Virus record (IMG/VR): IMGVR_UViG_3300031825_000044
Location: 1 to 39,112 of that record
Length of the DNA: 39,112 nt
DNA from: a virus
Reading direction: 5' to 3' (one strand)
This document shows, in pieces, positions 1 to 39,112 of this stretch. The notes beneath the pieces are model-generated. The model had not been told where the DNA came from, searched no databases, and saw only the letters and a program-made list of their open reading frames with translations. Numbering within the stretch: position 1 is the first letter of the stretch; each line of letters starts with the position of its first letter. Both the position numbers and the translations under genes were made by a program.

Positions 1-255
1 GCCACGGTCGCCGCCACGCGCGCCGCCACGGACGCCGCCACGGACGCCGCCACGCGCGCCGCCACGGTCGCCGCCACGTACGCCGCCACGGACGCCGCCA
101 CGTACGCCGCCACGCGCGCCGCCACGGTCGCCGCCACGGACGACGCCACGGACGCCGCCACGGACGCCGCCACGCGCGCCGCCACGCGCGCCGCCACGTA
201 CGCCGCCACGGTCGCCGCCACGGACGACGCCACGGTCGCCGCCACGGACGCCGCC
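1..255 (+). repeat. In-frame 12-nt tandem repeat (GCC GCC ACG NNC), 21 units in this segment
   Basis: Direct reading: every unit is GCCGCCACG + NN + C. NN is only GA, CG, GT or TA. The only other changes are two GCC->GAC (142-144, 226-228). The array ends at gccgcc|gaaaaa (255/256). Confidence 0.97.
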
Positions 256-1062
256 GAAAAATTTGCAGCAAGCGCCTGCTCGGCGCTTGCTGGAAAAGGT
301 GGGCTCGAGTGCGCCAAGTGGTGGTGGAGGACCTATCAAGGCGGAAACATGTGGGCCGGATTGTCCAGTTACCTCGAGGCTTGCCGAGAAGAACTTGGCC
401 TCGAGCTGCCCGCTTTCGAGAAGTACCAGGCATGGGAAGACGCAGCAATCCATGGAGGCTTTCGCGTGATCCACGAAGAATTCTGCATGGTGAGCGATTT
501 CCCTATGCAGATTCATAAGGATGATCAGCACCGGCCTCACAACCTGAACGGTCCGTCGCATGAATGGCGTGACGGGTGGAAGTTGTATCACGTCCACGGC
601 GTGCAGGTTCCGGGATGGATCATCGAGTGCGCAGACCGCATTTCTATCAAGTCGATTGATGACGAGACGAATGCAGAAGTCCGCCGCGTGATGATCGAGA
701 AGTACGGTCAAGCCAAATACCTGTTGAACTCTGGCGCCAAGAAGGTAAGCCAGGATGATTTCGGCATTCTCTACCGTCGGGATCTGCAGGACGACGAACC
801 GATTGTGATGGTTAGGGTTCTGAACAATACGCCGGAGCCGGATGGTTCTCTGTCTCGCGAAGAAGCCGAGGATGTGTTCGGCAGCGCGGCGGTACGACGC
901 CGTCTGAACACGATGCTCGCGATTGGGATGCCGGTAAGTGATGAGCCCCGCTTCAAGGAATACATGATCCGCGTTCCTCCCGAAATGAAGACCGCGCATG
1001 AGGCTATTGCCTGGACGTTTGATAAAACGCCTAGGACCTATCAGCCGAGCATAGAAACCTGA
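1..1062 (+). CDS. 3' part of the repeat protein: the (A-A-T-X)n array followed by a conserved uncharacterised C-terminal domain
   Basis: Frame +1 is open from nt 1 to TGA 1060-1062. Track ORF 349..1062 is only its ATG-delimited tail. The C-terminal pattern is ...[15 protein letters not shown]...[23 protein letters not shown]...[13 protein letters not shown]...EPDGS. It resembles a widespread domain of unknown function that I recall (possibly Pfam DUF6745), often preceded by Ala-rich short repeats. This is unverified. Confidence 0.8.
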
Positions 1063-2158: not shown

Positions 2159-2350
2159 ATGGACACCCCTATCCGTATGCAGGACCTGCGTCATGTGGAA
2201 ACCGGCCTTAGCACCGAGGAGAAAGCCGCTGCCCGGCGCGCGGGTCTAGCGCAAAAAGCTCGTGCAGCGCTTGGTGGCCGCTGGGTGATGGCACGTGAGA
2301 ACGCGCCGGTCCGCGGTGCCTACAACCCGCTTACTGGCGCGAGGCTGTAA
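2159..2350 (+). CDS. hypothetical protein (63 aa)
   Basis: Track ORF. Its stop TAA overlaps the next ATG (TAATG at 2348-2352). Confidence 0.6.
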   Translation: MDTPIRMQDLRHVETGLSTEEKAAARRAGLAQKARAALGGRWVMARENAPVRGAYNPLTGARL

Positions 2351-3213
2351 TGAACGCCCTAAACATTGAAGATTGGATCGGCCTTCGCTATGGCGAACCG
2401 ATTGATGTGTACCACGCTGACAAGAGCGCGATCAGCAAGACCGGCCTCGATCAGATAAACCAGTCGCCATTCATCTACTACTCGCGCTCGCTTGACCCGT
2501 CTCGACCGGATGAGCGCCAGAAGGTCGGTCAACTTGAAGGCAATCTCGCTCACTGCGCCGTGCTGGAGCCAGACGAGTTCAGCAAGCGCTATATCGTCGG
2601 CCCGGACGTCATCCGCAGCACGAAGATATGGAAGGACTTTGAAGCAGAGAATGTCGACAGGGTATGTATTAAGCCCGATCAATATGAAGCAGCCATGCGC
2701 CAGGCTGATTCGATTCGAGGCCTGCCAGATATCCGTGAATATCTCGGCAATGGACGCGCAGAAGTATCGGCGCGCTGGATAGACCCAGAAACGGGTGTGC
2801 GATGCCGCTGTCGCCCTGATTGGGTTAGCCCATGCGGATCAAAGACTGATCGTCTGCTGGATGTGAAGACCTACAGCGATGCTAGCCCCGAAGAATTCAA
2901 GCGCCAAATCGCGCGGAAGGCATACCACATTCAGGACGCGTTCTATAGCGATGGCTATGCGTTCGCGTCTGGGCGCGATGTGGTCGAGTTCATCTTCATC
3001 GCCGTCGAGACCGAGTGGCCATTCGCGGCAGCAGCCTATCGCCTCAATACCGACAGCCGCGAAGAAGGCTTCAATGAATATCGGCGCCTACTTGATATCT
3101 ATGAGGAGTGCCTGCGTTCCAATAAGTGGCCTGGGTACACAGAGCAGACAGTCGAGATCGAATTGCCGGCCTATGCATTTGCTACTAGGGAAGTGGAGAT
3201 TTCTTATGTCTGA
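2350..3213 (+). CDS. PD-(D/E)xK recombination exonuclease (exodeoxyribonuclease VIII / DUF3799-like)
   Basis: 287 aa. Pattern: ...SKTGLDQINQSP..Y......E.Q..G.LAHCAVLEP..F...RPDW...LLDVKT...F.RQIARKAYHIQDAFY...IFIAVETEWPF. This matches what I know of RecE-C-terminal/DUF3799 phage exonucleases. Confidence 0.75.
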   Translation: MNALNIEDWIGLRYGEPIDVYHADKSAISKTGLDQINQSPFIYYSRSLDPSRPDERQKVGQLEGNLAHCAVLEPDEFSKRYIVGPDVIRSTKIWKDFEAENVDRVCIKPDQYEAAMRQADSIRGLPDIREYLGNGRAEVSARWIDPETGVRCRCRPDWVSPCGSKTDRLLDVKTYSDASPEEFKRQIARKAYHIQDAFYSDGYAFASGRDVVEFIFIAVETEWPFAAAAYRLNTDSREEGFNEYRRLLDIYEECLRSNKWPGYTEQTVEIELPAYAFATREVEISYV

Positions 3214-5135: not shown

Positions 5136-5687
5136 ATGAAAGCCTGGACACATTGGACAGAAGAAGACGACGCCAAACTGCGCGAGCATTGGGCGAATGG
5201 CATCCCGGTGCGAAAGTGGTTTACTAATTTCCCGGGACGCAGCCAATCCTCAATCTTCTGCCGAGCGCATGCTCTTGGCCTTCCCGCACGCAACAAGACG
5301 GTACAGCGCGATGAATGCGTGACGTGGCGCATGATTCAGCGCGTGCTTTCCGATGGAGTGGCGAGGTCAGCCAAAGAAATCTCCATTCTCACCGGGTTCC
5401 ACAGTGCCTATATCTCACTTCAACTGAAGCGTCACTATCCGGAACATCTGCATATCGTCGGATGGGTTGGGCACCGCATGAAGATGCCGCGGTGGATACT
5501 TGGCCCTGGCGAAGATACGCCGAAGCCGGCGCCGATCTCGCATAGTGCGGCATCGGCGAAATGGCGCAAGAAGATACTGAATGAACGGCCGGAAATGATC
5601 GATGCTAAGAACGCACGCAGGCGCCTGCGATATGCCGAGCGTGCCGGGACTTTGATCCGCCGCGACCCAGCTGCGGCGTGGATATAG
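5136..5687 (+). CDS. putative DNA-binding protein with a Myb/SANT-like N-terminus (183 aa)
   Basis: WTEEDDAKLREHWANGIPVRKW is a SANT/Myb-like W-x-EED...L...W pattern. A possible wHTH lies around SAKEISILTGFHSAYISLQLKR. AAGGGG sits upstream of the ATG. Confidence 0.55.
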   Translation: MKAWTHWTEEDDAKLREHWANGIPVRKWFTNFPGRSQSSIFCRAHALGLPARNKTVQRDECVTWRMIQRVLSDGVARSAKEISILTGFHSAYISLQLKRHYPEHLHIVGWVGHRMKMPRWILGPGEDTPKPAPISHSAASAKWRKKILNERPEMIDAKNARRRLRYAERAGTLIRRDPAAAWI

Positions 5688-16310: not shown

Positions 16311-16763
16311 TTACAGCCATTTTTCGTACATCGTCTCGACCGGCTTGAAGTCGAGATAGCGGAACAGCGCAGAGGCATCGTGCTGAACCTTGCTGCCCAT
16401 CGCCCAGCGCTTCACGCCGCGACGGCGCAATTCCTTTTCCACGAAACGCATCATCCTGACGCCAGCCATGCCGGTGCGCTTGTCCTCCCGCACGAAGAAA
16501 ATATCAGGCGAGCAGGTGAGGCACGAGCGGTAGTGCAACCCTGGCGCGATGAATGCCACGAGATAGGCCACAATTGCCCCTTCCTCGCGCCCGATCACCA
16601 TCATCAGCGAGCCATCTGCCTCGCGCGCGCGGTAGACTTCAATCATCGGCTCTAGCGGGACGTCATGGTCCTTGTGCGTCGAAATCTCACCGTAGTGCGC
16701 ATGCAGCAACGGCAGGAGTTCTTCGTAGACATCAGAGAACCGCTCGACCATGAACGTAATCAT
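16311..16763 (-). CDS. GNAT-family N-acetyltransferase (150 aa)
   Basis: FVREDKRTGMAGVRMMRFVEKELRRRGVKR is the R-x-x-G-x-G/A acetyl-CoA-binding motif A context. Size and beta-alpha pattern are typical of GNATs. Its ATG shares one nt with the upstream stop (TGATG). Confidence 0.75.
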   Translation of the reverse strand: MITFMVERFSDVYEELLPLLHAHYGEISTHKDHDVPLEPMIEVYRAREADGSLMMVIGREEGAIVAYLVAFIAPGLHYRSCLTCSPDIFFVREDKRTGMAGVRMMRFVEKELRRRGVKRWAMGSKVQHDASALFRYLDFKPVETMYEKWL

Positions 16764-17338
16764 CAGAACCTCAGATCAATGACAAGGTGGATGCGATCAT
16801 TCGCGCTGTTGTTCAATACTTCATGCTCGATAGCATTCTGAAACCACCACACTTCGCCTTCCCTCATCCATACCGTTTCATCGCCACAGCGGAAGGTGTT
16901 GCCCGGTTCCGACTGGATGACGATGTGATAGCGGTCCCAATATTCGGCATGCCATTTCGAGTCAGCATGCGGGAAAATCTGGCCGCCTGGAATGATGCGA
17001 TTGATCATGCATCGCCCGAGCCGTGTCGCGCCAGTCGCTGTCATCAGCGCCATGATTAGCGCGCGCGCCTCGGGTAGTTCGTTGATCTCTGCGCGCCACG
17101 GGCATTCATGCAGGTCATGGCCAGCAAGTTTGTTCTGTTGATAGAGTTGTAGTTCTTCATCGGTTTCTACCGGCACATGGTCCTGAAACCGAAGATAGAT
17201 CGTGTCCGTCTCACCGAATGGCCCTTGAGGGAACTTGCGCAGAAAATCGTCTGCCTTCCACAGTTCCGGCTTCCTGTAAATAGCATTCAGTAGAGGCTTC
17301 ACATTCATCCCCTCGGCGATTTTCAAGAAGTTGCGCAT
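16763..17338 (-). CDS. cupin-fold Fe(II)/2-oxoglutarate oxygenase, aspartyl/asparaginyl beta-hydroxylase-like (191 aa)
   Basis: IIPGGQIFPHADSKWH...WWFQNAIEHEVLN is a His-x-Asp...His facial-triad arrangement, as in the Asp/Asn beta-hydroxylase (PF05118) family that includes LpxO. It is coupled to its neighbours by 1-nt overlaps at both ends. Confidence 0.65.
   Translation of the reverse strand: MRNFLKIAEGMNVKPLLNAIYRKPELWKADDFLRKFPQGPFGETDTIYLRFQDHVPVETDEELQLYQQNKLAGHDLHECPWRAEINELPEARALIMALMTATGATRLGRCMINRIIPGGQIFPHADSKWHAEYWDRYHIVIQSEPGNTFRCGDETVWMREGEVWWFQNAIEHEVLNNSANDRIHLVIDLRF

Positions 17339-36080: not shown

Positions 36081-36097
<17 letters not shown>
35369..36097 (-). CDS. putative replication accessory protein (242 aa)
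   Basis: ATG 36097 overlaps the replication-initiator gene by 17 nt. MHESDKPQFANVLKATADSYGRRPYLPETMKLWFEIF.... The function is inferred only from position. Confidence 0.55.
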
Positions 36098-36996
<899 letters not shown>

Positions 36997-37013
<17 letters not shown>

Positions 37014-37844: not shown

Positions 37845-37953
37845 GTGGAGAGTCGATGGAGTTCGGCTCCATGGATTGAGCGGGCTTTTTTTCGTCCTGA
37901 AAAACGTGGCCTATCGGACTCGGCTGTCCGATTGAAACGTTTTCGTCTTATCT

Positions 37954-37995
37954 AGACACATTCGTCTTGCTATCTAGACGCTTACGTCTTACAGT
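37954..37995 (+). promoter_or_regulatory. divergent early promoter (plus strand) with two AGAC-N6-GTCT operators
   Basis: -35 TTGCTA (37967-37972), a 17-nt spacer, -10 TACAGT (37990-37995). Operators are AGACACATTCGTCT (37954-37967) and AGACGCTTACGTCT (37976-37989, filling the spacer). Confidence 0.6.
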
Positions 37996-38306: not shown

Positions 38307-38657
38307 ATGAAGAAGCAACAACTGCAGCAGTTCCGTCAGGGCGATGTGCTCGTGGAGCGCGTGGCATCGATGCCGGATACCAAGATGACCGAGATCAAGA
38401 CGGATGGCCGTGTGGTGCTCGCATACGGAGAAGTCACTGGCCATGCCCATGCGATCTATCCCGAAGCCGGCGTCCTGCCCGCGAAGCTGTGGGATGCGGG
38501 TGCGGAGCGCTTCCTCCAGGTGATGGAGAAGACCTCGATCCAACACGAAGAACACGGCCCGATCCACCTCGAGCCCGGCATCTACCGCGTTTCGAAATTC
38601 GGCGAAGGCACCCAGCGCGAATACTCGCCCGAGGAAATCCGCCGCATCGCCGACTGA
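38307..38657 (+). CDS. conserved phage hypothetical protein (116 aa)
   Basis: Track ORF with AGGAG upstream. RQGDVLVERV...VLAYGEVTGHAHAI...HEEHGPIHLEPGIYRV is a pattern I recall from many phage genomes. Its function is unknown. Confidence 0.7.
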   Translation: MKKQQLQQFRQGDVLVERVASMPDTKMTEIKTDGRVVLAYGEVTGHAHAIYPEAGVLPAKLWDAGAERFLQVMEKTSIQHEEHGPIHLEPGIYRVSKFGEGTQREYSPEEIRRIAD

Positions 38658-38710: not shown

Positions 38711-39112
38711 ATGGCCAAGATCATTCGCACGCCGACCCGCGCTGAAGGCGGAATCACTCCGGCTGAAAAAGCAAAGATGGACCTGATCTCGAAGAAGTGG
38801 ATCGACATCGCGATGCGTACCAATCCCATCGAGCCGGAGAAGATCACGCCGGCTATCGAAGCGCTCTATGCCGCCGGGGGGCTGAAAAAGCCGCGCGTGG
38901 TAATCGTGCCGAGCCCGATGGTGATGGCTTTCGCATACGGTGCTTCGGCGTGGATCTGGCATTGCCGCAAACAGGATGCCACGTACGCCGCCACGGACGC
39001 CGCCACGGTCGCCGCCACGCGCGCCGCCACGGACGCCGCCACGGACGCCGCCACGCGCGCCGCCACGGTCGCCGCCACGTACGCCGCCACGGACGCCGCC
39101 ACGTACGCCGCC
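38711..39112 (+). CDS. 5' part of the (A-A-T-X)n repeat protein; it continues at nt 1 if the sequence is circular
   Basis: ATG at 38711 with purine-rich GAGAGA upstream. It is open for 134 codons to the window end, and is absent from the ORF track because it has no stop. MAKIIRTPTRAEGGITPAEKAKMDLISKKWIDIAMR...[18 protein letters not shown]... Confidence 0.8.
   Translation, partial: MAKIIRTPTRAEGGITPAEKAKMDLISKKWIDIAMRTNPIEPEKITPAIEALYAAGGLKKPRVVIVPSPMVMAFAYGASAWIWHCRKQDATYAATDAATVAATRAATDAATDAATRAATVAATYAATDAATYAA
38978..39112 (+). repeat. Start of the same 12-nt tandem repeat array (11 units), running off the window end
   Basis: gcc acg tac gcc gcc acg gac ... in the frame of the ORF that starts at 38711. 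X codons read Y D V R D D R V Y D Y. Confidence 0.97.
39002..39112. repeat. 111-nt terminal duplication identical to nt 1-111 (circular-contig overlap or terminal redundancy)
   Basis: Base-by-base comparison of 39002-39112 with 1-111 shows no mismatch. The reading frame is preserved across the join. Confidence 0.9.

Follow-up and report, generated by a model that had tools for sequence, protein, structure and literature searches.

The closest described counterpart of the locus reported here is gp54 of mycobacteriophage Tweety, whose tandem array has a minimal unit of 12 bp; neither the two Ala codons of this unit nor any third codon position varies (Pham et al., 2007, PMC2884959). Tweety gp54, Che8 gp57, and PMC gp51 contain 48, 26, and 15 units, respectively, between termini that are more than 95% identical, and a spike in G+C content lies over the Tweety gp54 array (PMC2884959). 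According to PMC9262239, which relays Dedrick et al. (2017), Tweety escape mutants that overcame the Phrann gp29/gp30 prophage defense had gained or lost repeats, and the system was described as a “tunable” counter-defense. In Bordetella phages BPP-1/BMP-1, the VR2 repeat of Bbp36 is present in 9–20 copies depending on the isolate, with variation confined to a short segment of each unit (PMC2884959). Here, a 12-nucleotide (nt) tandem repeat with the unit GCC GCC ACG NNC is described within a gene of the DUF6745 family in virus record IMGVR_UViG_3300031825_000044. The whole stretch of DNA that was analyzed, positions 1 to 39,112 of that record, is referred to as the window.

Transcription activator-like (TAL) effector repeats consist of near-identical repeat DNA except at the codons of the repeat-variable di-residue, which draw on a limited set of residues, and the arrays are rearranged by recombination; each unit is a folded module of about 34 amino acids (aa) that reads one DNA base. 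A diversity-generating retroelement requires both a reverse transcriptase and a template repeat, and its changes are specific to adenines. The window array is, on balance, probably a hypervariable tetrapeptide module, (X1-X2-Ala-Thr)n, that would re-tune the fit of a DUF6745 protein to a changing partner. As a phenomenon the repeat is already known in kind, and its function is proposed by analogy only. Within the literature searched, three aspects appear to be new: the presence of the array inside a huge uncharacterized family spanning several phyla, the clade-specific frames with a recurring Asp/Arg/Tyr (D/R/Y) alphabet, and a small partner gene that is frequently adjacent. An earlier note on this DNA, made from the sequence alone, had singled out the array; the feature proved real and the interpretation was supported, while the kind of repeat had been described previously in Tweety gp54 (PMC2884959; PMC9262239).

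Array and Gene Organization

The window array contained 23 units in one gene, counted after removal of a 111-nt terminal overlap (Table 1). It started with GAT GCC ACG TAC at position 38975, followed by 22 units of the form GCC GCC ACG NNC. Besides the GAT opening unit 1, the only deviations from the frame were two GCC to GAC changes, and the adenine of ACG was unchanged across all 23 units. The NN dinucleotide was GA, CG, GT, or TA (4 of the 16 possible values), and AAC was never seen at the NNC codon. The encoded X residues followed the order Y D V R D D R V Y D Y R V D D D R R Y V D V D. The unit, the unit count, the X order, and the two GCC to GAC changes given in the earlier note were thus all reproduced. 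Its claim of exactly four NN values held for the window array and failed beyond it, as a relative with 91% aa identity used D/Y/R and no V.

Tandem Repeats Finder reported a period of 12 with 21.2 copies, spanning 1–255 and 38978–39112, and the pattern GCCGCCACGNNCGCCGCCACG matched 29 times with at most two mismatches, compared with no matches in 100 shuffles. The G+C content was 82.6% in the array against 58% in the genome. The window array was a coding 12-nt variable-number tandem repeat that preserved the reading frame. Because the unit is 12 nt long, the frame is always kept, and variation alters the length and sequence of the protein, not its on/off state. An on/off phase-variable simple-sequence contingency locus, which requires units whose length cannot be divided by three, was rejected. 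A 60-nt higher-order period suggested by Tandem Repeats Finder was also rejected: X residues matched at a lag of five units 7 times against 4.4 expected (P = 0.12, not significant), and the apparent 91% identity of this period arises because 10 of every 12 bases are invariant. Unusual DNA secondary structure was likewise rejected, as the single-stranded array folded worse than shuffled sequences (z = +3.95).

The array belonged to a single open reading frame (ORF) of 450 aa that, once the overlap was removed, ran from an ATG at 38711 across the contig junction to the stop codon listed in Table 1. The overlap, in which window positions 1–111 were identical to the last 111 nt, was the sole prefix/suffix match and lay entirely within the array. 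Without it the window comprised 39,001 nt, and the contig was circularly closed. A chance overlap of nine units has a probability of approximately 1e-5. The longest repeated block in the array was three units (36 nt), so that any k-mer of at least about 50 nt is unique and the assembly path is well determined if the population was clonal. The 23-unit count follows this unique path and is provisional. The earlier note had cautioned that assembly could affect the unit number, and this caution was apt and general: the contig end lay inside the array in 37 of 111 array-bearing related loci. The presence of the array explains why one third of related viral contigs break at the DUF6745 gene.

The C-terminal part of the protein (aa 240–380) matched Pfam PF20530 (DUF6745) with E = 1.1e-41 and 142.8 bits (gathering cut-off 27 bits), and this match gives a name to what had been noted as a conserved C-terminal domain of unknown function. 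A set of 5.8 billion proteins yielded more than 1,000 homologues. PF20530 matches comprised 7,167 cluster representatives in a 1.84-billion-protein library clustered at 50% identity, and PF20530 was present in 120 of 120 homologues among the matches listed. The family spanned Proteobacteria, Actinobacteria, and cyanophages. By tblastn, DUF6745 was found in 2 of 50,697 deposited phage genomes. A megablast search for close cultured relatives gave only short matches in the methyltransferase region. Searches with the window protein returned function-unknown families only in PHROGs and nothing meaningful in NCBIfam.

Every close homologue that was read had the same architecture: about 90 conserved aa at the N-terminus, the array with its four-residue units, the motif ‘AC..LAG..GL.CA..W...YQGGNMW’, and the rest of DUF6745. 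The array site lay between the conserved ‘...VMAFAYGA.AWIW..RK’ helix and the helix containing the motif just given, and the window gene fitted this arrangement. Viral contigs and bacterial genomes supplied 122 homologous loci, which were scanned together with the window; 115 of these 123 sequences gave an array. A genuine (X1-X2-Ala-Thr)n array, of 3 to 97 or more units, was present in at least 111 of the 122 loci, at the same position as in the window. Array size across relatives ranged from 3 to more than 115 units. No array was detectable in approximately 59% of new DUF6745 cluster representatives. Distant DUF6745 members contained arrays at the same site in other frames, namely: xxAV, xxQV, xxQL, xxSV, and xxNL. 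One such member was gp38 of the Mycobacterium prophage prophiGD102-1 (locus L128, 3134–4579), a DUF6745 protein with approximately 50 units of (W/R/G)(G/D)-Gln-Leu at the site of the proteobacterial xxAT arrays.

Array Variation Among Relatives

The closest relative, IMGVR_UViG_3300031237_000141 (39,189 nt), had 91% aa identity and the same GCC GCC ACG NNC frame. Both ends of this contig lay in the array, which contained at least 97 units at one end and 20 at the other (at least 117 in total) with D, Y, and R and no V. Unit-count comparisons rest on short-read assemblies. In four sequences from sibling metagenomes (P0009, P0012, P0015, and P0016), the flanks were 100% identical as protein and differed by 0–2 nt over 1,429 nt, while the arrays contained 21, 10, 8, and 5 units, respectively, in different orders. 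Four further sequences (P0042, P0051, P0069, and P0111) had identical flanks and 28, 23, 18, and 15 units.

The 8- and 10-unit arrays came from k141 assemblies, in which a single 141-mer can span either array together with both flanks, and these arrays are probably real molecules. The 5-unit array of P0016, from a Logan assembly, may be collapsed. Unit number and order changed far faster than the flanking sequence. The length and order variants anticipated in the earlier note were thus found, with 23 units here against at least 117 in the 91%-identical relative and 21, 10, 8, and 5 units between near-identical flanks; the same array in all relatives, which would have spoken against that idea, was not seen. 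A trio of Xanthobacter prophages was rejected as a rate comparison, their flanks being only 63–83% identical and too divergent.

Codons, Cassettes, and the X1 Alphabet

Codon usage was tabulated for 95 arrays of at least eight units each. Within an array, the frame Ala and Thr were nearly always encoded by one codon each, whereas between arrays the codons varied among GCC, GCG, GCA, and GCT for Ala and among ACG, ACC, ACA, and ACT for Thr. The third base of the X1 codon was likewise uniform within an array; across arrays it was mostly C and sometimes T, G, or A. Codons that are uniform within arrays and different between them point to concerted evolution through turnover within each array, as had been proposed from the window alone, and not to constraint on a particular DNA sequence.

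At X1, D occurred in 88, R in 85, and Y in 81 of the 95 arrays, and these three residues made up 1,765 of 2,401 X1 residues. In arrays where the third base of X1 was G, under which TAG would be a stop codon, the trio became E/R/W. Pro was absent from X1 in approximately 2,400 units. Val, the fourth letter of the window array, was a minor letter found in 13 arrays. A mixed X1 in nearly every array, with D/R/Y recurring, argues for protein-level selection that keeps an acidic/basic/aromatic mix at one position per unit. The earlier suggestion of selection confined to X gains support from this recurrence and from the switch to E/R/W.

Synonymous polymorphism was present in only a few arrays. In three of them (L065, L113, and L061), synonymous third-base variants of the Thr codon were linked to the X1X2 codons of the next unit, and none of 2,000 shuffles reached the observed linkage. 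This linkage indicates that variants spread as contiguous DNA cassettes and not as independent point changes, in agreement with the cassette shuffling suggested earlier.

Multi-unit block duplications were significant in 17 of 86 arrays. A 76-unit array in a Hansschlegelia zhihuaiae prophage (L041, 6252–7164) showed near-perfect SAAT/DAAT alternation and contained a repeated block of 50 units. This is a case of extreme recent block amplification, unlike the random-like order of most arrays. After removal of this array and of the block-duplicated arrays, X1 identity at lags 1–8 was at expectation (|z| ≤ 1.1). A depletion of identical neighboring units was considered and rejected, because the pooled z of -3.5 came mostly from L041 and fell to -0.6 without L041 and the block-duplicated arrays.

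Predicted Structure

An AlphaFold2 model of the full-length protein, built from 121 sequences, had a mean predicted local distance difference test (pLDDT) score of 85.9 and a predicted template modeling (pTM) score of 0.73. Residues 1–68 and 204–450 exceeded a pLDDT of 90, and the array region was modeled as two long helices (69–128 and 153–203) with a low-confidence tip. A homologue with three units (P0014) was modeled with a pLDDT of 93.5 and a pTM of 0.83, and in this model the array occupied a loop between helices 69–87 and 106–127. From these models we infer a single globular domain formed jointly by the first 88 and the last 267 aa, with the array apparently inserted at a hairpin tip between two helices. 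The earlier description of the tract as joining an N-terminal part to a C-terminal domain was correct as to location, although the models indicate that it is probably not a linker between separate domains.

Foldseek searches of the Protein Data Bank (PDB) with the full-length and P0014 models gave nothing below E = 0.7, and a sequence-profile search of the PDB gave spurious matches only. In the viral structure library BFVD, the only matches were other DUF6745 proteins, e.g., that of Microcystis phage LMM01. Ala-rich antifreeze proteins (type I, Maxi, and (Ala-Ala-Thr)n glycoproteins) were rejected as a comparison: they need an 11-residue Thr periodicity or an AAT tripeptide, and the period here is strictly four. 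The Foldseek match to the antifreeze structure 4ke2 had E = 1.0 and a root-mean-square deviation of 26.

Genomic Context

The window represents the entire genome of a temperate phage. Its plus-strand operon began after operator-like repeats and contained, in order: a 57-aa ORF, a gene of PHROGs family phrog_27831, the DUF6745 gene, small ORFs of unknown function, an exonuclease VIII-like gene (2350–3213), a C5 DNA methyltransferase gene, and an integrase gene. The replication genes diverged from this operon on the minus strand. Early expression of the DUF6745 gene is a reasonable inference from its operon position. Of 55 loci in which both flanks were present, 24 had the phrog_27831 gene directly next to the DUF6745 gene (11 upstream and 13 downstream), and it was found nowhere else in a locus. 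Adjacency on either side suggests that the two genes form a two-gene module. The 116-aa phrog_27831 protein had no match in Pfam, PDB, or PADLOC.

Several other features were observed in the window. The operator-like direct repeats, at approximately 37940–37995, lay in the stretch that separates the divergent replication operon from the plus-strand operon; they comprised TATCTAGAC, with the palindrome TCTAGA inside it, and CGTCTT in four copies. A perfect 7-nt tandem repeat (TCTGGTG, 5.9 copies, 36438–36478) lay inside a replication-initiator/primosomal-like gene (36081–37013, minus strand) and encoded the peptide HQTPDTR in duplicate; it could represent iterons or an origin located in the initiator gene, or else a tract prone to slippage. 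Among large minus-strand ORFs resembling virion genes were an aspartyl/asparaginyl beta-hydroxylase-like gene (16763–17338; Pfam E = 8.5e-17) and a gene with a weak GNAT acetyltransferase match (16311–16763); the two genes may be morons or may encode enzymes that modify the virion. Between the C5 DNA methyltransferase and the integrase, the product of 5136–5687 (plus strand) had an N-terminus resembling the cell-cycle regulator GcrA, at 26.6 bits against a cut-off of 26.9.

Table 1. Positions of the array, the flanking parts of the DUF6745 gene, the adjacent gene, and the array ends of the closest relative.
Feature	Position	Strand	Basis
Main array body, 21 units GCC GCC ACG NNC = (Ala/Asp-Ala-Thr-X)	1..255	+	ORF, Tandem Repeats Finder, pattern search
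C-terminal DUF6745 domain to stop codon TGA 1060–1062	256..1062	+	Pfam PF20530
phrog_27831 gene, 116 aa, function unknown, candidate partner	38307..38657	+	PHROGs E = 2.5e-16
Conserved N-terminal 88 aa (MAKIIRTPTRAEGG...RVVIVPSPMVMAFAYGASAWIWHCRKQ)	38711..38974	+	ORF reconstruction; conserved in all homologues; AlphaFold pLDDT >90, packs with C-terminal part
First 2.25 non-redundant units (D-A-T-Y, A-A-T-D, then GCC)	38975..39001	+	Sequence, ORF reconstruction, pattern search
Terminal overlap, exact duplicate of 1–111, 9.25 units; circle-closure point, not extra sequence	39002..39112	+	End comparison
Array ends of IMGVR_UViG_3300031237_000141	L001 1–1171; L005 6261–6502		

Interpretation and Alternative Explanations

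Intra-array recombination or slippage keeps the ten framing bases identical, synonymous sites included, and variant units spread as contiguous DNA cassettes. X1 holds a small acidic/basic/aromatic alphabet (Asp/Arg/Tyr family-wide), with Val as the fourth letter in the window array. Judging from the models, both arms of a helix-loop-helix may be lengthened by the array, giving an Ala-rich hairpin of helices whose length is set by the unit number and whose surface carries the X residues. By analogy with Tweety, gain, loss, and reshuffling of units would re-tune the fit of the protein to a rapidly changing partner, most likely a defense protein encoded by the host or a prophage, and the DUF6745 locus would work as a contingency locus for phage counter-defense. 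The small phrog_27831 protein may act together with the DUF6745 protein.

A number of observations weigh against this proposal. Part of the variation in unit number between metagenomes may reflect collapse in short-read or k = 31 assemblies. AlphaFold confidence was low in the array (pLDDT 42–73 over residues 90–180), and a strict four-residue period is unlike canonical coiled-coil packing. None of the PADLOC defense families matched the window protein or its neighbors, and no paper in the literature searched mentioned DUF6745, PF20530, or the peptide strings. Since the flanks of Tweety gp54 are non-homologous to those of the window gene, the functional analogy is carried by the repeat alone. 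Unit order was also indistinguishable from random in most arrays (window, P = 0.53; L001, covering 97 of the at least 117 units of the closest relative, P = 0.78), and identical units were not adjacent more often than expected. Runs would be the mark of slippage and blocks that of recent unequal exchange; neither is visible in these arrays, and simple slippage or recent block duplication would not suffice alone. Our working explanation for the random-like order is many small events combined with selection for heterogeneity.

That random-like order, with |z| ≤ 1.1 at lags 1–8 once block-duplicated arrays are removed, would also suit a neutral, tolerated spacer, i.e., a soluble, helix-prone, Ala-rich filler (perhaps a salt-bridged helix) whose length and order drift through 12-nt instability with no adaptive role, and in which D/R/Y are kept for solubility or helix stability. 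Such a spacer fits family members with only 3–5 units (P0014 and others), the approximately 59% of new cluster representatives without a detectable array, the absence of Pro from X1, and the mild enrichment of D followed by R and mild depletion of D-D and R-R at i to i+4, as for helix-stabilizing pairs. Unequal exchange alone should homogenize an array, yet nearly every array keeps three to five cassette types at comparable frequencies. The acid/base/aromatic trio is re-created under different third-base regimes (D/R/Y and E/R/W), arrays persist at the same site across phyla in different frames (xxAT, xxQL, xxQV, and xxAV), and in Tweety, the sole tested analogue, repeat number has a selectable phenotype according to PMC9262239. 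On this evidence a neutral spacer seems unlikely, although it retains appreciable weight.

Far less probable is templated hypermutation by a diversity-generating retroelement or similar system, in which NNC would be the footprint of AAC to NNC adenine mutagenesis from a template repeat. NNC superficially resembles the codons of variable repeats, the X order looks like independent draws per unit, and the Tweety repeat has been likened to Bordetella phage VR2 (PMC2884959). Pfam and PHROGs searches of 20 submitted window ORFs, including the large unknown ones, gave no reverse transcriptase, and Y-x-DD motifs in long ORFs occurred only in the portal gene and in one frame that looked non-coding. 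The pattern search found no second copy of the repeat in the window that could serve as template, the A of ACG was invariant over 23 units, only 4 of 16 NN values were used and AAC was not among them, and variants in relatives travel with linked synonymous sites as cassettes. The missing reverse transcriptase and template copy, the invariant A, and the absence of AAC indicate that the array is not a retroelement target. It is also quite improbable that the length (23 units), order, and circle closure of the window array are short-read assembly artefacts, even granting that the repeat itself exists. The terminal overlap wholly within the array, the 37 of 111 related loci that break there, and the closest relative, which could not be closed at 117 units or more, would suit such an origin. 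Against it stand the uniqueness of k-mers of about 50 nt or longer given a longest repeated block of 36 nt, the low probability of a nine-unit overlap by chance, and the in-frame joining of the N- and C-terminal halves into an architecture shared by hundreds of contiguous homologues, including those in isolate genomes.

The re-tuning module favored here might be taken further, into a programmable recognition surface: one repeat-variable residue per unit, drawn from an alphabet of three to five letters (acid, base, aromatic, and one more), would form a combinatorial code along the helical hairpin, which phages would rewrite by shuffling cassettes and so keep pace with a fast-evolving target in the host or a prophage. 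We regard this extension as a long shot. If true, thousands of phage lineages (7,167 cluster representatives) would possess a counterpart, at the level of protein, of the diversification seen in TAL effectors or antibody loops, and the random-like order in long arrays would point to a dedicated diversification process beyond plain slippage.

Comparison With Known Systems

The window array resembled the targets of diversity-generating retroelements in that, within a phage gene, NNC-type codons varied at their first two positions only. With TAL effectors it shared repeat DNA that is nearly constant except at the codons of hypervariable residues, in arrays that are reshuffled. TAL-effector units are two-helix modules of about 33–35 aa, in contrast to 4 aa here, and no nucleic-acid binding is known or predicted for the window protein. 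Like the window array, Bbp36 VR2 is a tandem repeat that keeps the reading frame; the gene that holds it is non-essential and lies in the early region of a temperate phage. The VR2 unit is 24 bp long and encodes 8 aa (GTATAG followed by YR, ES, or EK), and, when the sequences were compared by eye, Bbp36 looked unrelated to the window protein.

Within the DUF6745 family, the N- and C-terminal regions of prophiGD102-1 gp38 were homologous to those of the window protein, and the array occupied the same position with one or two varying residues per unit from a small alphabet (W/R/G and G/D). The frame was Gln-Leu in place of the Ala-Thr of the window; other clades had Ala-Val, Gln-Val, Ser-Val, or Asn-Leu, and all were annotated as hypothetical.

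The window gene showed every repeat-level characteristic of the Tweety gp54 class. Both had a 12-bp unit encoding a tetrapeptide with two invariant residues, and in both (on the DUF6745 side, in the window array and the 95 tabulated arrays) third codon positions were invariant (almost always so within each of the 95 arrays) while the first and second positions varied among very few amino acids. Unit number and composition differed between near-identical termini (for DUF6745, in short-read assemblies), a G+C spike lay over the array, and the gene was a non-structural one in the early region of a temperate phage. Tweety gp54 has 48 units, and the DUF6745 arrays compared here had from 23 to more than 115. 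The frames differed, being Ala-Ala-x-x with G/W/Q and S/Y in Tweety and x-x-Ala-Thr with D/R/Y/V in the window. The flanks of gp54 (approximately 140 aa N-terminal and 40 aa C-terminal) matched nothing in Pfam and showed no similarity to DUF6745 at the profile level; an hhalign comparison of the DUF6745 alignment with gp54 gave a probability of 8.7% over 9 columns. Because these flanks are unrelated, the window gene is best filed as a DUF6745 member that would work like gp54 and not as a gp54 homologue. The function of gp54 was shown experimentally, whereas that of the window protein is proposed by analogy. Tweety gp54 has been treated so far as a mycobacteriophage curiosity. If the proposal is correct, the same design exists in an unrelated and very large family, “tunable” repeat proteins would be a general phage strategy, and DUF6745 would have its first functional hypothesis.
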